The notes below the pieces were generated by a model. The model saw nothing but the letters and a program-made list of their open reading frames with translations. It searched no databases and was not told the DNA's origin. Positions 7,978 to 29,454 of a stretch of DNA of 32,000 bases are shown here, in pieces (within the stretch, counting starts at the first letter, position 1; every line of letters starts with the position of its first letter). The position numbers were made by a program, and so were the translations under genes. The stretch covers positions 4,170,001 to 4,202,000 of the forward strand of contig NC_010546.1 of the NCBI RefSeq assembly GCF_000017845.1, written 5' to 3'. Source of the DNA: Crocosphaera subtropica ATCC 51142. GTDB lineage: Bacteria; Cyanobacteriota; Cyanobacteriia; Cyanobacteriales; Microcystaceae.

Positions 7978-10062
7978 TTAGCTTCTTATAGCATCAATAA
8001 GTTCGTCAGCAGTGGGGTTAAAGTTAGGCTTAGGAATGTTAATATTTTCAGCCCAAAGATAATAAACTTTTTCTAAAGCTTCTTCATGAACACTCCAGGA
8101 TCTTGTTTGTTTTTTAGTGTTAACCTGAACTAATAACCATTTTTGTTCTGGAGACTCTCGAGGTTCAATGGCAAAAATAAAACAAAGTTCTTGATTATAC
8201 GCTTCATAATAAGATAACTTATACAGTGATCCTTGCCATCCACGTTCTCCCATTGTTGCTAATTGAATGGCTTGTTCTTCTAGTTCATTTTTAGGGATAA
8301 AAATATAAGTTTGTGGGGTAGTTTGATCAGAATAAACTGGAGGACACCAACCAAATTTATCTAGCATAAAATCTAACAGTTGATCAAATGCTTCTATATC
8401 ATTTGTCATCAAAGCAACATCCCCATCTTGATCAGGTTGTGTTCTTACCCATTTGATTTGTTCTTTAAACTTATGGTTTGCAGCAACGGCAAAAGCATTA
8501 TCAGTCACTAATTCATAATCAACCCCAATATAGCCTTTTTCTACAAGTTCTTCAATGGTTTTATCCGAAGGAAAAGGATGATTAATTGAGTAATCATAAT
8601 CAGCAAATGACACTGTTTGAGCAGTTTGATTAGTAGTATTGCCGCTCTGATTCATTAATTCTTTAGCACGAGGAATGATCTCTTTTTTCTTACTGGAAAT
8701 ACCTTTTATGGTATTAATAGGAAATACTGTTTCTTCTCCATTGTCTAAAATTAAAGAAAAACGCAGATTCTCTTCATCATTAAAATATAATTTGATCAGA
8801 GTTTTGTTTTCATCTCCATCAATATTGATACCACAATACTCTACAGTATCCTTCATTTGTAAACGATTACTATCTAAATCATTACGTTTAAATAATCGTT
8901 TCAGGGCATTAAATCCATTAATTTCCATCTGAGTTGTGATAATTTCTTCAAAATGAGAAGGAACTGACTGCATTTCAGAAGGAGCTTGCTCAAACTCTTC
9001 TATTTGGATATTTGTAGGTTTCTTAGAGTTAGTATTTGAGTTTTTAGATTGACTTAATTCTTGTTTTAAGCTTTCAATTTCATTCTGTAAAGCTTTTAGT
9101 TTTTCTTGGTTTTCTTCCTCTGCTAATGCAATTCCGTGAGCTACATAATCAAGACTATAAATATGTAAAAGCGTTTCTCTCATTTCTTCGGCTGACTCAA
9201 AACGATTTTGTGGTAAAACCGCTACTGCTTTTTTTAGCCACTTAAATAAAGGAGGTGCAATTATTTCTTCAACTTCTGTTAAGTCTAATTCGTAATTTTC
9301 CGTGATGTCAAATTGATGAGGCGGAACTCCTGTTATTAATACTAAAAGTGTCATTCCTACTGCATATAAATCACTTTGAAAGAATGTTTTACCCATTTGC
9401 TGTTCAATGGGACAATATCCAGGAGTACCAATAACTGTTCCTGTTTTTCCTAAACCAGAAACTTCTACATCTTTGATGATTCCGAAGTCAATTAAAACTG
9501 GTTTACCATCTCCTTGACGTAAAATAATGTTATCAGGTTTAATATCTCGATGAATAATGTTTTGTTGATGAACTGTTTCTAAAACCTCTAGTAAAGATAA
9601 CATTAGTTCAATAGCTTTTTTATCAGCCATAACATATCCTTCTTTCAATAATGCCAAGAGTTGATCTTTTAAACTATTACCCTGAATAAATTCTTGAATT
9701 AAATAAAAATTTCCTTCAAAATCAAAAAAATCAATTAAAGAAGGGATTTGCCCGTGAGAAACTCCTAATTTTTGTAGAACTTGTGCTTCTTTTTTAAATC
9801 TCTCTAATAAGTCTAAATTATGGTCATGATCATCTCCTAATTTTTGCAATTTAGCGACATAAATAACTGGAACGGCTGTCATTAAACTTTTAACTAGAAA
9901 GGTTGCACCGAAACCCCCTTCTCCTAAAACTTTCGTCACTTCATATTTATTAGCTAAACAATAACCGGGTTGAATATCTTTGACCTTTTTTCTACCGTGA
10001 TTATTTTGGTTATCTTCTGAAAATAAATCAAAAATTTTATTTAACATGGTTGGGTTCCTCAT
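7978..10062 (-). CDS. Hanks-type Ser/Thr protein kinase fused to a coiled-coil linker and an unassigned roughly 330-aa C-terminal domain
   Basis: Kinase motifs are all present: G-loop LGEGGFGATF, VAK lysine, catalytic HRDIKPDNIIL, DFG (LIDFGI) and GTPGYCPIEQ. Residues around 310-345 are heptad-like (KLKALQNEIESLKQELSQ). I cannot assign residues around 370-694 to any family. An alternative start is the ATG at 10047, preceded by GAGGAA. Confidence 0.85.
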   Translation of the reverse strand: MRNPTMLNKIFDLFSEDNQNNHGRKKVKDIQPGYCLANKYEVTKVLGEGGFGATFLVKSLMTAVPVIYVAKLQKLGDDHDHNLDLLERFKKEAQVLQKLGVSHGQIPSLIDFFDFEGNFYLIQEFIQGNSLKDQLLALLKEGYVMADKKAIELMLSLLEVLETVHQQNIIHRDIKPDNIILRQGDGKPVLIDFGIIKDVEVSGLGKTGTVIGTPGYCPIEQQMGKTFFQSDLYAVGMTLLVLITGVPPHQFDITENYELDLTEVEEIIAPPLFKWLKKAVAVLPQNRFESAEEMRETLLHIYSLDYVAHGIALAEEENQEKLKALQNEIESLKQELSQSKNSNTNSKKPTNIQIEEFEQAPSEMQSVPSHFEEIITTQMEINGFNALKRLFKRNDLDSNRLQMKDTVEYCGINIDGDENKTLIKLYFNDEENLRFSLILDNGEETVFPINTIKGISSKKKEIIPRAKELMNQSGNTTNQTAQTVSFADYDYSINHPFPSDKTIEELVEKGYIGVDYELVTDNAFAVAANHKFKEQIKWVRTQPDQDGDVALMTNDIEAFDQLLDFMLDKFGWCPPVYSDQTTPQTYIFIPKNELEEQAIQLATMGERGWQGSLYKLSYYEAYNQELCFIFAIEPRESPEQKWLLVQVNTKKQTRSWSVHEEALEKVYYLWAENINIPKPNFNPTADELIDAIRS

Positions 10063-10095: not shown

Positions 10096-10105
10096 AGTAT
10101 TCCCA
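10096..10105 (-). promoter_or_regulatory. TGGGAATACT motif upstream of the kinase gene
   Basis: The minus strand reads TGGGAATACT. There are 33 nt between the motif and the ATG at 10062. The identical 10-mer occurs upstream of comM and GmrSD-2, and a 1-mismatch copy lies upstream of GmrSD-1. Confidence 0.4.
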
Positions 10106-10156: not shown

Positions 10157-10186
10157 ATTTTTCCTCAATTTCTGGGAATACTAAAT
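10157..10186 (+). promoter_or_regulatory. 30-nt element containing TGGGAATACT upstream of comM
   Basis: The sequence is ATTTTTCCTCAATTTCTGGGAATACTAAAT. The core 10-mer lies at 10173-10182, 35 nt before the ATG at 10218. It is 24/30 identical to 11760-11789. Confidence 0.4.
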
Positions 10187-10217: not shown

Positions 10218-11747
10218 ATGTTAGCCAGGGTTTGGTGCGCTTCATTAGTGGGTATTGATGCGGTAAAAGTTGGGGTAGAAGTAGATGTTGCCGGGGGACT
10301 TCCTGCTATCACAATTGTGGGACTACCAGACACTGCTGTACAAGAATCCAGGGAAAGAGTGAAAGCAGCTATTAAGAATTCAGGGTTTGCCTTTCCCGTG
10401 CGAAAAATAATTATTAACTTAGCCCCGGCTGACTTACGCAAAGATGGCCCTTCTTTTGACTTACCCATCAGTGTGGGTATATTAACGGCCTCAGAGCAAG
10501 TTGATGCCCATTTATTGGGGGATTATTTGTTTTTAGGAGAACTCTCCCTTGATGGCAGTTTGCGCCCCGTGGCCGGCGTTTTACCCATCGCTGCTAAAGC
10601 GCAACAGTTAAGGATCAAAGGGTTAGTGGTGCCGGCGGATAACGCCCAAGAAGCAGCCGTCGTCAAAGGTTTAGCGGTTTATGGGTTCAAACACCTCTCA
10701 GATGTAGCTGACTTCCTCTGTCAACCCGAAAACTATCAACCTGTCACCTATCAACCCCCGAAAAAGGATGATTTAAGCCCTATTTTTCCCCTGGATCTCA
10801 AAGACGTTAAAGGCCAAACCCACGCCCGTCGCGCCTTAGAAATAGCGGCATCGGGGGGACATAATTTAATTTTAGTTGGGCCACCCGGAAGCGGAAAAAC
10901 CATGTTAGCTAAGCGTTTACCTGGTATTTTACCGCCGTTATCCTTTTCTGAGGCGTTAGAAGTCTCTCAGATCCACTCTGTAGCTGGTTTACTGAAAAAT
11001 AGAGGCTCTTTGATCCAGGATCGCCCCTTTCGTAGTCCCCATCATTCTGCGTCGGGTCCGAGTTTAGTGGGGGGTGGAAGTTACCCGAAACCGGGAGAAA
11101 TTTCCTTATCTCATCACGGTATCTTATTTTTAGACGAATTAACGGAGTTTAAGCGTAATGTGCTGGAGTTTCTTCGTCAACCCTTAGAAGATGGTTATGT
11201 TTCAATATCCCGAACTCGTCAGTCGGTGACATTCCCTGCACAGTTTACCCTGGTCGCAAGCACAAACCCTTGTCCCTGTGGGTATTTCGGCGATCCCATC
11301 CAACGCTGTACTTGTTCCCCCCGTCAACGGGAACAATATTGGGCGAAGTTATCGGGTCCGTTGATGGATAGAATTGATTTACAAGTGGCTGTAAACCGCC
11401 TAAAACCCGAAGAAATGACGCAACAAGTGACAGGGGAGGGATCGGATAGTATTAGAGAGAGGGTGAAATTAGCCCGCGATCGCGCTCACCATCGCTTTAA
11501 GGAAGATGCTTCAGTATCTTGTAACGCACAGATGCAGACATCCCATTTACGGCGTTTTTGTGCGTTGGATGATGGTAGTCGTAACTTATTAGAAGGGGCG
11601 ATCCGTAAGTTAGGGTTATCTGCAAGGGCGATGGATCGAGTGTTAAAAGTATCTCGTACTATTGCGGATCTTGCTGATGATGACACAGTTAAAAGTTATC
11701 ATGTTGCTGAGGCAATACAATATCGAACCATTGATAGAATGCAGTAG
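10218..11747 (+). CDS. comM: YifB/ComM family Mg-chelatase-like AAA+ ATPase
   Basis: The N-terminal Lon-protease-like domain is GVEVDVAGGLPAITIVGLPD...ESRERVKAAI. Also present are Walker A GPPGSGKTM, Walker B ILFLDEL and the Cys cluster NPCPCGYFGDP..RCTC. The 509-aa length is typical. Confidence 0.9.
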   Translation: MLARVWCASLVGIDAVKVGVEVDVAGGLPAITIVGLPDTAVQESRERVKAAIKNSGFAFPVRKIIINLAPADLRKDGPSFDLPISVGILTASEQVDAHLLGDYLFLGELSLDGSLRPVAGVLPIAAKAQQLRIKGLVVPADNAQEAAVVKGLAVYGFKHLSDVADFLCQPENYQPVTYQPPKKDDLSPIFPLDLKDVKGQTHARRALEIAASGGHNLILVGPPGSGKTMLAKRLPGILPPLSFSEALEVSQIHSVAGLLKNRGSLIQDRPFRSPHHSASGPSLVGGGSYPKPGEISLSHHGILFLDELTEFKRNVLEFLRQPLEDGYVSISRTRQSVTFPAQFTLVASTNPCPCGYFGDPIQRCTCSPRQREQYWAKLSGPLMDRIDLQVAVNRLKPEEMTQQVTGEGSDSIRERVKLARDRAHHRFKEDASVSCNAQMQTSHLRRFCALDDGSRNLLEGAIRKLGLSARAMDRVLKVSRTIADLADDDTVKSYHVAEAIQYRTIDRMQ

Positions 11748-11759
11748 GATTTTTTTGTT

Positions 11760-11789
11760 ATTTTTCTGTAATTTCTGGGAATCCTAATA
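11760..11789 (+). promoter_or_regulatory. 30-nt element containing TGGGAATCCT upstream of GmrSD-1
   Basis: The sequence is ATTTTTCTGTAATTTCTGGGAATCCTAATA. The core lies at 11776-11785, 17 nt before the ATG at 11803 (32 nt before the alternative ATG at 11818). It forms a direct repeat with 10157-10186. Confidence 0.4.
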
Positions 11790-11802: not shown

Positions 11803-13497
11803 ATGAATAGTAACAAAATGAAAGCTTCTGAAACCAGTATTCGTAATCTTTTAGAAGGTACAAAACAGTTCCAAGTTCCTCTTTTTCAAAGACCCTATTC
11901 TTGGAAAAAAAGCCACTGGGATACTCTTTGGGATGATTTAATGAGTATATATAATGAAGAAGTTGAAGGCAGTTACTTTTTAGGTCCAATAGTTACACAG
12001 TCAATATCTGCAACGGCTGACGGAATTTCACCATTTCTTATCATTGATGGTCAACAGCGTTTGACTACTTTAAGTATTTTATTAGCAAGTTTACGAGATA
12101 AATTAAAAAATGCAAATAAGAAGAGAGTTTCAGATGAGTTACACGAATTTTATTTAATTAATAAGTTTAAAGACAATGAAGATTATTTTAAAGTCTTACC
12201 AACTCAAGCTGATCGGGACTCTTATAAAGCACTTATTGATAGAGAAAATAGCTTAAGTCATCTCAACTTGAATGGTCAAATAACTAAAGCTCATGAATAT
12301 TTTATTAAAAAATTAAATAACCAAGGAATTGATTTTTGCGACAAAATCAAAAATATTATTCTTGAAAAATTAATTGTTGTTAATATTACATCGGGCGAGG
12401 ATGATAATCCTTATTTAATTTTTGAGAGTTTGAATAATAAAGGACAAGAATTGACTCAAGCTGATTTAGTTCGTAATTATATATTTATGAAGCTACCTCT
12501 TGAAAGTAGAGAAAAAGAATATAATTGTTTATGGTTACCTCTTGAAAATAAATTTAAAGAACAAGTGGGTGAAAAATATTCTGGAGAATTGACCAATTCC
12601 TTTTGGTTTTATTTAAGAAAAGAGGGAAAATCCGTTTCTAAAAATAATATTTATCAATCATTTAAGAAAAAATGTGATAACTCTTCAGATGGGTTACAAG
12701 AAGAATTAGAATTATTAGTGAAATTTTCTCAGTATTATGAATGTTTAAACTTTCCTGAAACAGAAGAATCTAATTCTATGCTAAAAAACTATTTTAATAA
12801 CTTAAAGAAATTAGATTTCACCACATCACACATTTTTCTATTAAATATATATAATGATTATCAAAATAGTCAAATTTCAAAAGATGACTTTGAGAAAATA
12901 TTAATTTATCTCGAATCCTATTTTGTTCGTCGTTTATTTTCAGGAGTATCTACAAGGGTATTAGGTGGAATTCTCAATAATTTATATAAGGATATACAAA
13001 AAGAAAATACTGGTGATATTGTCCAAAGATTATATGAAATCCTAAATCGATTTGAAAACCAAAAAAGATGGCCAACGGATGAAGAGTTTAAACAGGGAAT
13101 TATAAATCATAATATTTATAGTCAAAAAACAGCAGGACGAACTCAATTTATTCTAGAAAGATTAGAAAAAAGTCAAGGTAAAGAAACTGTTGATTTTTCA
13201 AACTTGACTGTTGAACATATTATGCCTCAAACGCTTAGTAATCAATGGAAAAAAACATTAGGTGAGAAAAATGCAAAGAATTATAAGACGTGGCTTCATA
13301 CATTGGGAAATTTAACACTAACTGCTTATAACCCAGAATTATCTAATAAACCCTATTTTGATAAACAAAAATATTTAATAGACAGTAACTTATATCTTAA
13401 TCGGTATTTTCGTGATATTAATGACTGGAATTTTGATGAGATTAAAGAAAGGGGAAACCGCTTAGCTGATATCGCTATCAAAGTCTGGCCTAGATAA
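11803..13497 (+). CDS. GmrSD-family type IV (modification-dependent) restriction endonuclease candidate: DUF262 plus DUF1524
   Basis: N-terminal DUF262 (ParB/Srx-like) motifs are FQVPLFQRPYSW and IIDGQQRLTTLSILL. The C-terminal DUF1524 His-Me finger-like block is TVEHIMPQ...WLHTLGNLTLTAYNPELSNKPY. Confidence 0.85.
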   Translation: MNSNKMKASETSIRNLLEGTKQFQVPLFQRPYSWKKSHWDTLWDDLMSIYNEEVEGSYFLGPIVTQSISATADGISPFLIIDGQQRLTTLSILLASLRDKLKNANKKRVSDELHEFYLINKFKDNEDYFKVLPTQADRDSYKALIDRENSLSHLNLNGQITKAHEYFIKKLNNQGIDFCDKIKNIILEKLIVVNITSGEDDNPYLIFESLNNKGQELTQADLVRNYIFMKLPLESREKEYNCLWLPLENKFKEQVGEKYSGELTNSFWFYLRKEGKSVSKNNIYQSFKKKCDNSSDGLQEELELLVKFSQYYECLNFPETEESNSMLKNYFNNLKKLDFTTSHIFLLNIYNDYQNSQISKDDFEKILIYLESYFVRRLFSGVSTRVLGGILNNLYKDIQKENTGDIVQRLYEILNRFENQKRWPTDEEFKQGIINHNIYSQKTAGRTQFILERLEKSQGKETVDFSNLTVEHIMPQTLSNQWKKTLGEKNAKNYKTWLHTLGNLTLTAYNPELSNKPYFDKQKYLIDSNLYLNRYFRDINDWNFDEIKERGNRLADIAIKVWPR

Positions 13498-15042: not shown

Positions 15043-16740
15043 TTAAGTGGATAGGTTTAACTTCCATAAATTTTGCAATTCTGCCAGTAAATACCGTTGT
15101 CGTTGTTCAATAATTTCTGGTGTCCATTCTTCTTCTTTCATTGCTTGGATAGTTAAAGCAAAGATAGCGGTAGGATTATTAATGTATTTATCTTTTTTTA
15201 CTTTATATTCATAATTTTTTGCTTCACTATTTTTTTTATGAGAAAGTAAAACTAAATTACCGAGACGATGAACATATTTGTCTTTTTGTTCTTGAGAAGT
15301 AAACCATTCGTTCCACTGACTATCTAATGGAGGATTTTGAGGTAAAATGTGTTCAATGGTAATCACTTTATAACCATCATAGTTAGGAATTCCATCACTC
15401 ATTAAACTATCAAGACGAAGTAAAACATACAGGTTTACTTTTCTCATTTCGTAAAGATTTCTATCTAATAATTTAATGATTTCTTCTTGTTCTGAAGACG
15501 ATAGTTGTAAAGGAGAATCTACTGCATATAAATCTGCATCATCTTCTATCGCTTGTAAAATATCTGCATAGTGTTTATTTCTTTGATAAATAGTCGTTCT
15601 GAGAATCATTAAGCCGACAGCAAATCGCTCTAAATAGGTTAAAAAAGCTAGTATCTTTTCAGGCTTATTTTTATGTTTTTTAATATACAAAATAGTGGGA
15701 GGTATCCACTCAAAATGATCAATACGCTGTAACCATTTCAAGAGTTCATTAATTTCTTTAGCACCGTGATCATGGATAAAATCACATTTTTTTATGTCAT
15801 CAAAAGCCTCACTAAAAGCTTGTAATACATTATCAATAAAATCACGAGGATTATGCTTAATTAAAACATACTCACGAAATTCCTCAATCACTTTACGACT
15901 TAGTCTCTTCTTTGCGTAAATCATGCGTATATGAGAGAATAATTCTTGAAAATTCTCTCGACCTAATTTTACTTCTATGTCTTCCCATTTCTTGGTATAT
16001 TTTTTTTCTAGAGATTCATTATCTGAAATTTTACCGATCAAATCTGCTTTTAAAATATCAGTAACCGATAAATCTAAGCCTCGATCATTTAAGACTGAGA
16101 AAATACGATAAGCTGATTCAAAATCAGGAGTAGAAACAGCTACTAAATAACATCGCTGTAAGAGGAATTTTGTTAAATGTTGTTTTTGAGAGTCTTCGGG
16201 TAATTTTTCACTTATTCTTTTAAGTAAAATCCGAGTATTGTTAACAATATTTTTTTGAGGATCAGAAAGATTTTGAACTGTTATAGTTTCGATATCTTTT
16301 AATCCTTCTGAAGTTTGAATATATTTTTCAAAAAATTCTTTATCCCGTTCCCTTAAATATAATCGAGGACGGGCAGGAATTCCTGAAAGTCTCCTTTCTG
16401 CCTGATAGATAAAATACCCTAATTCATTATCATTTATCAACTTCCTTAAGACAGATAAAAGAATTGTCAAAGTGGTTAATCTTTGTTGTCCATCGACAAC
16501 CTCTGAGTCTGGTTTTCCTTCAGGTTTTATAAGGACAATATTTCCTAAAAAATAAGGTGCTATATGTTCAATATTTACAGAATTATCACCCATAGCATCA
16601 ATCAGATCATCTAATAATCTTTCCGTTTCCTCTGTCGTCCAAGCATAAGGACGTTGATAGTTAGGAATATTAAAAGAAAATTGATCACTAAAAATCTCTT
16701 TAATGGGATATCCTGCACCGTCAATTTTAATTGCTGTCAT
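15043..16740 (-). CDS. Second, divergent GmrSD-family type IV restriction endonuclease candidate (DUF262 plus DUF1524)
   Basis: DUF262 motifs are FNIPNYQRPYAW and VVDGQQRLTTLTILL. The DUF1524 block is TIEHILPQN...YVHRLGNLVLLSHKKNSEAKNYEY. At 565 aa it is close to the 564 aa of the first copy, but by eye they share only motif-level identity. Confidence 0.85.
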   Translation of the reverse strand: MTAIKIDGAGYPIKEIFSDQFSFNIPNYQRPYAWTTEETERLLDDLIDAMGDNSVNIEHIAPYFLGNIVLIKPEGKPDSEVVDGQQRLTTLTILLSVLRKLINDNELGYFIYQAERRLSGIPARPRLYLRERDKEFFEKYIQTSEGLKDIETITVQNLSDPQKNIVNNTRILLKRISEKLPEDSQKQHLTKFLLQRCYLVAVSTPDFESAYRIFSVLNDRGLDLSVTDILKADLIGKISDNESLEKKYTKKWEDIEVKLGRENFQELFSHIRMIYAKKRLSRKVIEEFREYVLIKHNPRDFIDNVLQAFSEAFDDIKKCDFIHDHGAKEINELLKWLQRIDHFEWIPPTILYIKKHKNKPEKILAFLTYLERFAVGLMILRTTIYQRNKHYADILQAIEDDADLYAVDSPLQLSSSEQEEIIKLLDRNLYEMRKVNLYVLLRLDSLMSDGIPNYDGYKVITIEHILPQNPPLDSQWNEWFTSQEQKDKYVHRLGNLVLLSHKKNSEAKNYEYKVKKDKYINNPTAIFALTIQAMKEEEWTPEIIEQRQRYLLAELQNLWKLNLST

Positions 16741-16780: not shown

Positions 16781-16790
16781 AGTATTCCCA
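16781..16790 (-). promoter_or_regulatory. TGGGAATACT motif upstream of GmrSD-2
   Basis: The minus strand reads AAATTGGGAATACTATCAG. There are 40 nt between the 10-mer and the ATG at 16740. Confidence 0.4.
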
Positions 16791-18048: not shown

Positions 18049-18357
18049 TTAACAATGAATCAGATAACTAGAGAAAAAGTTTACGAAACAGAATTGCTGA
18101 AAAAAGAATGATTTTACAATTTTCACTTGTTGATTTTCACTATCAATCTCGTAAACAAGACGATGTTGAAGATTAATTCTTCGTGAATACATATCTTTCA
18201 AATCCCCTGTTAGTTTTTCATAAGGTGGAGGATTTTGATAGGGGTTAACCTTAAGAATATCAAGTAACTGATCTACTTTACTTTTTAACCCTGCACGATT
18301 AACTTTTTTAGCATCTTTTAACGCTCTTTTTGTTAACGCAATTTTCCACATTACCAT
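18049..18357 (-). CDS. yoeB: Txe/YoeB-family type II toxin with an atypical C-terminus
   Basis: The translation MWKIALTKRALKDAKK...NPYQNPPPYEKLTGDLKDMYSRRINLQHRLVYEI matches the YoeB/Txe core. The expected terminal ...W.HY(E) is replaced by KSFFFQQFCFVNFFSSYLIHC. The start overlaps the antitoxin stop (ATGGTAATG). Confidence 0.7.
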   Translation of the reverse strand: MVMWKIALTKRALKDAKKVNRAGLKSKVDQLLDILKVNPYQNPPPYEKLTGDLKDMYSRRINLQHRLVYEIDSENQQVKIVKSFFFQQFCFVNFFSSYLIHC

Positions 18358-18602
18358 TCCACTTCGTCAAGAGGAGTGCAGTCTTCCCAAGGAGTATTTT
18401 TTCCTTTTATCAAATCGTCTTTTACCCCAGGAATGGATAATAGGTAAAGGGTTTCCTGTAAAGATTTCCACTCATCCAAAGAAATTAATACAGCTTGTTT
18501 ATGATTTTCAACGGTGATTAAGGTAGCTTCATGAGATATGTTAACCTGGTCAATTAGTGAAGAAAGGAGAGCATTAGCTTCTTCAATATTAATATTATTC
18601 AT
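18351..18602 (-). CDS. yefM: Phd/YefM-family type II antitoxin
   Basis: An 83-aa protein with LSSLIDQVNISHEATLIT..NHKQAVLISLDEWKSLQETLYLLS, typical of YefM. It lies immediately upstream of the toxin gene and overlaps it. Confidence 0.8.
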   Translation of the reverse strand: MNNINIEEANALLSSLIDQVNISHEATLITVENHKQAVLISLDEWKSLQETLYLLSIPGVKDDLIKGKNTPWEDCTPLDEVEW

Positions 18603-26829: not shown

Positions 26830-29454
26830 TTATAGAGTCAATTGTTTAAGGTCTAAATTGTTCTCAAAAATTTCATCAATGGGTAACATTTTACCTTCCA
26901 TTGTCATAAATTTATGGTCTTTGGTAGCTCGAATGGTTGCTCCATCTTCGAGATAGTATTCAAAGATTTCTTGTTCTCCTCGATAATGCCATTGGGCGAT
27001 CGCTTGAGTATAAACAAAACCATTTGGATCAACGGTATAAACCGTACAATTGATGTTTTCTTCGACTATTTTACCAATAGGCATCGGTCCATATTCAACG
27101 GTTAAAATTTCCGTATCATAGCTTAAACAATATTCAGCAAATTTGATCATCTGCTCAAATAAATCTTCTGCAATGGCTTGAGACACGCCATTTTTAGTTG
27201 CCCCATCGATAAAAATCTCTCGGTGTTTCGTCATTTCTGCAATTTTTTTCTTACCCATCGCACGACGCAATAAGTCAGCTTCTCCTAACGAATAGCCAGC
27301 TAAATCTTGCGCCATTTTCATGATTTGTTCTTGATATACTAACACCGCATAGGTTTCTTTTAAAATGGGTTCTAATAGTTTATGTTGATAAATAATCTCC
27401 TCTCGTCCATGTTTTCGATTGATAAATTTGGGAATTAATCCTGCATCTAATGGTCCGGGACGATAGAGGGCTAAAATAGAAGAAATATCTTCTATTCCTG
27501 ACGGTTTTAAGTCTTTTACAATCTGTTTCATTCCCGATGATTCTAACTGAAAGATCCCTTCTAAATCTCCTTTTTCTAACAATTTGTGAGTCTTTTCTAC
27601 ATCGGGAGGTAATTTTTTTGCTGTTCCTTTAGCAATAATTTCTAGAGCTTTTCTTTCATCTAAAGGTAATTGATCTAAGTCTAATGTTACCCCTTGGTTT
27701 TGTTTAATTAAATCAGCCGTTCTTTGAATCGTAGTTAAATTTCTTAACCCCAAAAAGTCCATTTTTAATAATCCCAAGGACTCTAAATCTTCCATATAAT
27801 ATTGGGTGATCACTGCCCCATCATTATTCTTTTGTAAAGGAACAACTTGATCTAAAGGTTCAGAAGAAATAACCACACCGGCAGCATGAACCCCAAAAGT
27901 TTTATTCGTTCCTTCGATCCGAATAGCCATGTCAACCCAACGACGAACTAAAGGATCATTTTCATACCTTTCTTTAAATTCTGGGGTTGGGGTTTCATCA
28001 GAAACCATAACTTTTAATTTCGTGGGTTTTCCCCTTGAAACTGGGATCATTTTTGTCATTTTATCTGATTCAGCATAGGGAATATCTAACACCCTCGCCA
28101 CATCTTTTAACACTGCTTTTGATGTCATGCGGTTAAAGGTAATAATCTGAGCAACATTTGCTTCCCCGTACTTTCTAGTGACATATTTAATCATTTCGTC
28201 CCGTCTTTCGATACAAAAATCTGTATCAACATCAGGCATAGATTTCCTTTCAGGATTTAGAAATCGCTCAAATAATAGACCATGATGAACGGGATCAATG
28301 TTGGTTATTTTTAAACAATAAGCGACCAAAGAACCGGCCGCCGAACCCCTACCCGGACCCACAGGAATATGGTTATCTCTGGCATATTTAATATAGTCCC
28401 ACACCACTAAGAAATAGGTTGAAAAACCCATCTGTTGCAACATTTTTAATTCATATTCTAACCGTTCCCGATATTCATCAGGAATTTCACTACGAGAGCG
28501 ACACTTTAACCTTTCTAATAATCCTTGCCAAGCAATTTCTTCTACATAACTATCAGGGTTATGTCCAGCAGGAACGGGATAATTAGGAATCCTTGGTTCT
28601 CCCAAAATATCTTTATAAGGTTCAATTTTTTCTGCTACTTCTAATGTGTTATTAACAGCTTCTTCGATGACATCATCAGAGAGATGATCACGAAATAGTA
28701 ACCGCATTTCATCAGCAGATTTCAAATATTCTGTGCCACTATATCTCAGGCGTTTTTCATCAGTAATTAATTTACCCGTTTGAATACATAATAATGCGTC
28801 ATGTGCTTCAACATCGTAACAAGAAATAAAATGGGAGTCATTGGTTGCCACAATTTTAATGTCTAAGTCACGGGCAATTTTAGCAATAGCAACATTAACA
28901 ATTCTATCCTCAACAGAACCGTGATCTTGAATTTCTAAATAAAAGTCCTCTTTAAATAGTTTTTTGTACCATTTAGCAACAGCTTTTGCTTCTTTTATAT
29001 CTCCTGCTAAAATTCGCTGAGGTATTTCTCCCCCTAAACAAGCACTGGTAACAATTAACCCTTCATGATATTGCTCTAATAGTTCTTTATTGATACAAGG
29101 ACGTGCAAAAATACCTTTTCCTTGCATTCCTTTGAGATGGGAAATGGTGGTTAATTTAACTAAATTTTTATAACCTTGGGTATTTTTAGCTAAGACAACT
29201 TGATGATATTTTTTATACTTTTTCTTCTCTTCAATATCCCCATTAATCACATACATTTCGTTACCAATAATGGGTTTTACGCCTTTATTCCGACACACTT
29301 TAATGAGTTCGATCGCCCCATACATTACACCATGATCCGTTAAGGCGATCGCTGGCATTTCTAATTCTACGGCACGATCAATTAACGCATTTAATTGGGA
29401 TGCACCATCGAGTAAACTATAATCACTGTGTATATGTAAACCAACGAAGGACAT
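26830..29454 (-). CDS. dnaE: DNA polymerase III alpha subunit, N-terminal split fragment (DnaE-N) ending in a split-intein N-fragment
   Basis: The PHP domain ([17 protein letters not shown]) and polymerase palm blocks ([21 protein letters not shown]) are present. The extein ends ...KFAEY and is followed by [14 protein letters not shown]... Confidence 0.95.
26833..27129 (-). other. DnaE split intein, N-terminal fragment (IntN, 99 aa)
   Basis: The sequence is [99 protein letters not shown]. It closely resembles the Npu/Ssp DnaE IntN, with Cys1 and block B TKDH. The Cys1 codon lies at 27127-27129. Confidence 0.9.

Follow-up and report, generated by a model that had tools for sequence, protein, structure and literature searches.

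A Hanks-type kinase with a modular tail in Crocosphaera subtropica ATCC 51142 and its possible link to GmrSD-type restriction

Hanks-type Ser/Thr kinases have been found repeatedly in bacterial immunity, and how they sense the invader is mostly unknown. The closest described systems are the PASTA kinases PknB/StkP, Staphylococcus Stk2 and PD-T4-6, the kinases PglW (BREX type 2/Pgl), MAD6 (MADS), and TerY-P, and CapK-CapS; CapK is described as a kinase activated by single-stranded DNA that controls immune operons (PMC13373217). The models that PADLOC uses for PD-T4-6 also label the PASTA kinase of every S. thermophilus genome, where the phage phenotype is only very mild (PMC11514479). Here we describe a kinase gene from Crocosphaera subtropica ATCC 51142, a laboratory model organism, located in a 32,000-nucleotide (nt) window, by which we mean the whole stretch of DNA analyzed (contig NC_010546.1, positions 4,170,001 to 4,202,000). 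The encoded kinase is real, intact, and of a known kind; its modular tail is undescribed, and its link to restriction genes is recurrent and suggestive. We tentatively favor, with somewhat less than even confidence, its candidacy as a DNA-conflict-associated sensor kinase with ties to type IV (GmrSD-type) restriction. Below we show the intact catalytic motifs, modular anatomy, distribution, recurrent gene neighborhoods, and promoter motif.

The kinase looks catalytically competent. Pfam Pkinase matches amino acids (aa) 40 to 268 (1.4e-32; 113.6 bits versus a gathering cutoff of 31.7), and all of the Hanks motifs named in a preliminary description of this locus are found in the open reading frame (ORF): GEGGFG at residue 47, VAK at 69 (K71), HRDIKPDN at 171 (D173), DFG at 192, and GTPGY at 212. 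After the kinase domain comes a Glu/Lys/Gln-rich, heptad-like stretch (aa ∼313 to 345), part of a linker (aa 301 to 374) that is conserved in the family (65% identity to Crocosphaera orthologs). Past residue 381, the Pfam scan of the whole protein found no family, and it found no PASTA repeat anywhere. As described previously, the tail has no transmembrane-like segment; the highest 19-residue hydropathy value, 1.61, lies inside the kinase N-lobe. For the tail, searches of Pfam, NCBIfam, and PDB sequences, with single sequences as well as profiles, returned zero matches.

The preliminary description treated this tail as a single orphan domain of roughly 330 aa and as a private sensor. Our searches, which combined a word index with exhaustive HMMER over 1.84 billion representative proteins, contradict both ideas. 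Word-index and HMMER searches alike divide aa 375 to 694 into separately conserved parts; HMMER matches cover query residues 1 to 100 or 113 to 320, never spanning both. Module A follows kinase and coiled coil in the sister kinases P0015, P0016, P0018, P0033, P0042, and P0044. It also forms the C terminus of many proteins of ∼350 to 470 aa that have an N-terminal HSDR_N nuclease domain (type I restriction), at ∼25 to 40% identity, and occurs in small stand-alone proteins and, according to an Atlas structure search, in HIRAN-domain proteins. Module B (aa ∼487 to 694) is found as stand-alone proteins of 230 to 300 aa, at the N terminus of the longer proteins P0007, P0008, P0011, and P0014, and downstream of an FtsK/SpoIIIE ATPase domain in P0006. 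It comprises two parts, B1 and B2; profile-profile comparisons (B1 versus B2, B1 versus A, B2 versus A) found A, B1, and B2 mutually unrelated. The tail consists of three small mobile modules, common to nuclease, HIRAN, FtsK, and stand-alone proteins.

The kinase-coil-A core defines the family, with end modules that vary among members. In P0031, B1 alone stands at the N terminus, followed by a kinase-coil-A core that is 46% identical to the query kinase over 450 aa; this amounts to a second, independent fusion between B1 and the family, which argues that B1 and the kinase work together. B2 also occurs alone, in ORFs of ∼140 to 170 aa: one genome (G089; loci L019, L021, and L022) has four such copies, scattered near gyrA, hemerythrin, and histidine-phosphatase genes. 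In another genome (G288, L016:7801-10551), a gene encoding module B alone (226 aa) lies divergent from the gene of another Hanks kinase (584 aa), whose product is 30% identical to the window kinase over part of the kinase domain; kinase and module B are paired again here, as separate genes. P0011, P0023, and P0024 have an extra module of ∼50 aa with a conserved basic/aromatic pattern, before or after module B, which suggests further domain shuffling around B.

AlphaFold2 models the modules with confidence: module A (predicted local distance difference test score, 88.8) adopts an alpha-beta5-alpha fold, and module B (91.6) folds as two subdomains. The preliminary description had proposed running Foldseek on an AlphaFold model of the tail; this found no match at E ≤ 1e-3, either in PDB (A and B models) or in BFVD (module B). 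In the Atlas, module A reached template modeling (TM) scores of up to 0.85 against the tail regions of proteins with HSDR_N or HIRAN domains; for module B, an ESM Atlas feature search returned nothing usable, with structural matches below a TM score of 0.5. An exhaustive structural aligner gave middling scores for the modules. The best matches, all weak, were the C-terminal "double-wing" domain of T4 MotA and YjbR/DUF419 for module A and the PARP WGR domain for B2. The MotA/YjbR matches span most of A and the WGR match most of B2, and both point to DNA binders. The sole structural resemblances of the tail are weak ones to DNA binders rather than to sensors of phage proteins, the role suggested earlier for it.

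That earlier suggestion belongs to a reading in which the protein would act on its own as an abortive-infection kinase, like Stk2 or PD-T4-6: module B would sense a phage protein, the kinase would phosphorylate many host proteins, and growth would halt. An accessory, AT-rich single gene would suit such a kinase, the variable terminal modules recall the sensor-domain swapping of defense proteins, and PADLOC PD-T4-6 hidden Markov models match at up to 229 bits (2e-68). The match is limited to aa 18 to 372, i.e., kinase plus coil, however, and because the same models also call housekeeping kinases such as that of S. thermophilus, we do not regard the PADLOC call as evidence of defense. Scores against the NCBIfam models for other defense kinases are far below threshold (MAD6, 118 versus 460; PglW, 71 versus 990), a scan of viral contigs with module B found no viral or phage homolog, and BFVD offered no viral fold match. 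We therefore consider an abortive-infection kinase distinctly improbable.

Kinase-coil-A is a rare, patchily spread cyanobacterial accessory family. Among 401 genomes sampled from the phylum, 7 have a match to module B and 45 to module A, nearly all of the latter in non-kinase ORFs of ∼360 to 400 aa; the kinase-coil-A core turned up in about 6 of 401 genomes sampled from the order and in 5 of 401 from the class. The sole genome of the same genus in the sample lacks module A, module B, and the core. A module B scan of genome contigs yielded three loci; the corresponding scan of metagenome contigs yielded four, one of which duplicates a locus already in hand (L004), the other three being too short for use. 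G514 was dropped as a separate new lineage: it and L004 are the same contig of a metagenome-assembled genome (MAG) and are counted as one lineage. The kinase gene is single copy in the ATCC 51142 assembly (5.46 Mb, six pieces).

In Crocosphaera chwakensis CCY0110, an in-frame deletion has cut the kinase gene down to one encoding a 175-aa product (L005:9818-10345). The promoter survives, and so do the first 14 residues, the end of module A, and the whole of B2; the stub may be expressed as a B2-only protein. This stub and the frameshifted MAG copy described below would fit an accessory gene that is drifting, serves no function at present, and persists only through recent descent. Against drift, three or more other genomes or assemblies have full-length, stop-free orthologs with 72 to 88% identity in every module, and all catalytic residues are retained, making it very improbable.

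The kinase gene is more AT rich than comM, as reported previously (G+C fraction of 0.321 versus 0.471), and its absence from the sampled same-genus genome and reduction to a stub in CCY0110 bear out the view that it is an accessory, AT-rich gene; against the window mean of 0.365, comM is the unusually GC-rich one. HIP1 sites are indeed missing from the kinase gene, the feature to which the preliminary description drew attention. Because only ∼1.2 would be expected, given 18 in the 32-kb window, this is unremarkable on its own; it fits a pattern with GmrSD-a, GmrSD-b, and one Uma2 gene, where HIP1 is likewise absent.

The restriction link extends to other lineages. A gene of the GmrSD-b type lies within 7 kb of the kinase-A gene in the MAG (G514/L004, where the two are adjacent), in G192 (L054), and in G707 (L070), as well as in the window. 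The GmrSD proteins of these lineages are 41 to 43% identical to window GmrSD-b versus 24% to GmrSD-a, and their best PADLOC model is the same as that of GmrSD-b. Because these genomes have only 2 to 9 GmrSD_N matches each, a GmrSD gene within 7 kb is expected by chance in about 1% of cases; its proximity in three or four lineages is far above chance.

In the MAG, the gene order is module B protein, pentapeptide-repeat protein, GmrSD, and kinase (frameshifted). In G192, it is MerR, VWA, kinase, pentapeptide, a 292-aa tandem-domain protein, a 282-aa protein, GmrSD, and a 240-aa protein; G707 and G766, from another order than G192, have this block minus the VWA and pentapeptide genes. Six genes are thus common to G192 and G707: MerR, kinase, the 292-aa and 282-aa proteins, GmrSD, and the 240-aa protein. 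Between these two genomes, the kinase, the 292-aa protein, and GmrSD share 77 to 87% amino acid identity and the remaining shared genes 49 to 70%, and the flanks are unrelated. From its sequence, the block looks like a horizontally moving cassette and a candidate mobile defense cassette. Its 292-aa protein is the PADLOC candidate PDC-S02; BLASTP ruled out the idea that the G192 copy combines HSDR_N with a relative of module A, and it is unrelated to the C-terminal domain of P0018. PDB sequence searches with the 292-, 282-, and 240-aa proteins were uninformative.

Several observations weigh against a direct tie between the kinase and restriction. Clustering in defense islands could account for GmrSD proximity with no direct functional link, the sample is small, and the independent lineages are few (three to five). 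No GmrSD gene lies within 10 kb of the kinase in G296, and none is present on the 8-kb contig of G951. Of the three other Crocosphaera genomes retaining the kinase gene, two (XPORK-15E and UHCC 0190) likewise have no GmrSD gene within 10 kb. In the window itself, the kinase gene stands outside any operon with GmrSD-b: comM, GmrSD-a, and a TldD/PmbA-like gene intervene, and GmrSD-b is 5 kb away, so that kinase and GmrSD do not form the single block seen in G514, G192, and G707. Stand-alone B and B2 genes adjoin purL/purF, gyrA, hemerythrin, and AAA genes, not defense genes. The Trp-Gly-Arg signature is absent from B2, and no WGR family came up when the entire protein was scanned against Pfam; the missing viral relatives of module B count on this side too. 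The restriction link put forward in the preliminary description consequently survives in part: a GmrSD/DUF262 association recurs in other lineages and fails in two Crocosphaera strains. Its proposed survey of gene neighborhoods gave a similarly divided result, with the core near GmrSD in three or four lineages and stand-alone module B among housekeeping genes.

The direct neighbors of the window kinase gene are Uma2 and comM, and within Crocosphaera the kinase gene is always divergent from comM (in ATCC 51142, XPORK-15E, and UHCC 0190). Synteny between CCY0110 and the window covers DUF29, GmrSD-b, the TldD/PmbA-like gene, comM, and Uma2. XPORK-15E and UHCC 0190 carry a duplicated comM 5′ fragment (97 or 220 codons) between the kinase gene and intact comM (L003:5692-8282 and L020:4626-7993), and the XPORK-15E locus also has a MazF toxin gene, placed between fragment and intact comM. 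The duplication looks like an insertion into the comM 5′ end that regenerates the gene, i.e., an integration hotspot.

The upstream motif that the preliminary description found to be shared by the kinase gene and two type IV restriction candidates is exact at GmrSD-b and has one mismatch at GmrSD-a. It also precedes comM, and is a general promoter element, the J-Box, rather than a defense-specific signal. The J-Box (consensus GGGaAtacT) is an extended −10 element of SigJ-dependent promoters, which SigF may read where a strain lacks SigJ; in Nostoc, J-Box genes are hormogonium and pilus genes (PMC6495340). Genome-wide, the exact 10-mer occurs 32 times versus ∼13 expected, and three of the 32 fall within 6.7 kb, each 33 to 40 nt before an ATG (kinase, comM, and GmrSD-b). 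The divergent comM/kinase J-Box pair is retained in four Crocosphaera genomes, including CCY0110 with its gutted kinase gene. No J-Box was found at the kinase genes of G296, G192, or the MAG; the predicted coregulation with competence and pilus genes would therefore be specific to Crocosphaera.

These promoters raise the possibility of an ordinary signaling kinase that belongs to the J-Box (SigJ/SigF) regulon for pili, motility, and competence, whose tail docks cellular partners and for which the restriction genes are bystanders in a variable region. The conserved comM/kinase pair, the pilus connection of J-Box genes in Nostoc, and the housekeeping character of the remainder of the window all speak for it. 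Hanks kinases with diverse tails are numerous in cyanobacteria, and FHA domains read phospho-threonine: three tandem FHA-GGDEF-EAL genes lie 2 to 8 kb from the kinase gene in XPORK-15E (L003:12647-19252), and their products are possible clients of the kinase. Such a regulon kinase is harder to reconcile with the sporadic distribution and the loss of the gene in a sister strain, with the lack of a J-Box and of a comM neighbor outside Crocosphaera, where GmrSD cassettes are found instead, and with the joining of module A to nuclease and HIRAN domains elsewhere. On balance, we regard it as somewhat unlikely.

If the kinase is instead a sensor tied to GmrSD-type restriction, as we favor, it could work as follows. 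In the order kinase, coiled coil, A, B1, and B2, the coil probably dimerizes the catalytic domains, and nucleic acid would be bound by module A, perhaps with B2. The kinase would be switched on by DNA features that the cell encounters in infection or DNA uptake, and it would then phosphorylate partner proteins connected with GmrSD-type restriction. The Crocosphaera gene would be transcribed from its SigJ/SigF-type J-Box together with comM and the GmrSD genes, in piliated or competent cells. DNA binding, the sensing role, the substrates, and any defense phenotype are the parts that we infer.

A bolder version, quite unlikely in our estimation, would have kinase-coil-A, GmrSD-b, and the small partners (PDC-S02-like, 282-aa, 240-aa, and MerR proteins) form an undescribed cyanobacterial system of phosphorylation-controlled type IV restriction or defense, in which a DNA-sensing Hanks kinase licenses or restrains the nuclease; the Crocosphaera form would have gained a B1-B2 sensor and been wired to the competence/pilus sigma-factor regulon. 

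The recurrent GmrSD link includes a cassette that crosses orders, a concrete candidate system, and the family supplies three compact modules whose folds are predicted confidently and for which Pfam, NCBIfam, and PDB sequences offer no match. Should the kinase respond to DNA and control restriction or the uptake of DNA, it would tie together natural competence, restriction, and the expression of pili in cyanobacteria. Should it prove not to be DNA responsive, the orphan-domain reading is corrected all the same, and the PADLOC PD-T4-6 call is shown to carry little weight.

Apart from these genes, the window includes the N-terminal part of DNA polymerase III alpha (26830-29454, minus strand; 874 aa), with a weak intein-splicing match at its end. 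A split DnaE intein is known in cyanobacteria, and the match is consistent with such an intein.

Table 1. Features of the kinase gene, its tail modules, promoters, and neighbors (window coordinates unless a locus is named)
Feature	Coordinates	Strand	Basis or remark
Whole gene, 694-aa Hanks-type Ser/Thr kinase with modular tail	7978..10062	-	ORF and translation
Alternative start, M6	10047	-	Agrees with N terminus of ortholog P0003
Kinase catalytic domain, aa ∼36-300 (K71, D173, D192)	9163..9957	-	Pfam Pkinase, motif positions
Coiled-coil/low-complexity linker, aa 301-374	8941..9162	-	Weak Dynamitin match, aa 314-381
Module A, aa 375-475, alpha-beta5-alpha domain	8638..8940	-	Homology searches, model
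Module B1, aa 487-590	8293..8604	-	Homology searches
Module B2, aa 591-694, helix/four-stranded sheet/helix	7981..8292	-	Homology searches, model
J-Box of kinase gene, extended -10 promoter element	10096..10105	-	TGGGAATACT, exactly 33 nt upstream of ATG
J-Box of divergent comM	10173..10182	+	35 nt upstream of comM ATG
comM, Mg-chelatase-like competence helicase, divergent neighbor of kinase	10218..11747	+	Pfam
J-Box upstream of GmrSD-a	11776-11785		One mismatch
GmrSD-a, second and divergent GmrSD	11803..13497	+	Pfam, PADLOC
GmrSD-b, type IV restriction enzyme (GmrSD_N + GmrSD_C), subfamily recurring near kinase-A genes	15043..16740	-	Pfam, PADLOC
J-Box of GmrSD-b	16781..16790	-	Exact TGGGAATACT, 40 nt upstream
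J-Box of 102-aa ORF (18049-18357)	18380-18389	-	One mismatch (TGGGAAGACT), 22 nt upstream
Shared block in G192	L054:1197-11798
Shared block in G707	L070:3839-12431

Compared with described kinases, the window protein resembles the Hanks kinases PknB/StkP in its full set of catalytic motifs and its Pkinase score above cutoff, but it has neither a transmembrane segment nor PASTA repeats; its score against NCBIfam PknB_PASTA, 141.8 versus a cutoff of 450, places it outside PknB/Stk1, and no NCBIfam model reaches its cutoff for this kinase. With PD-T4-6 and Staphylococcus Stk2 it has in common that it is a single accessory kinase gene; the difference is that the match stops at about aa 372, beyond which the tail is unrelated. 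Like PglW, MAD6, and TerY-P, it is a Ser/Thr kinase encoded beside DNA-targeting defense genes, but PglX/Z, MAD, and PP2C partners are lacking in the window. The TerY-P triad in particular is absent, Uma2 and comM taking up the neighboring positions; a VWA gene is found only in G192, before the kinase, and its product has no PADLOC model match. CapK differs in its kinase fold, being described as an anti-sigma-factor-type kinase, not a Hanks kinase (PMC13373217). The window kinase has no MerR partner; G192 and G707 each have a MerR-like gene flanking that of the kinase. The likeness to CapK-CapS is one of logic only: there, a DNA-sensing kinase is encoded beside a small regulator and an immune operon.

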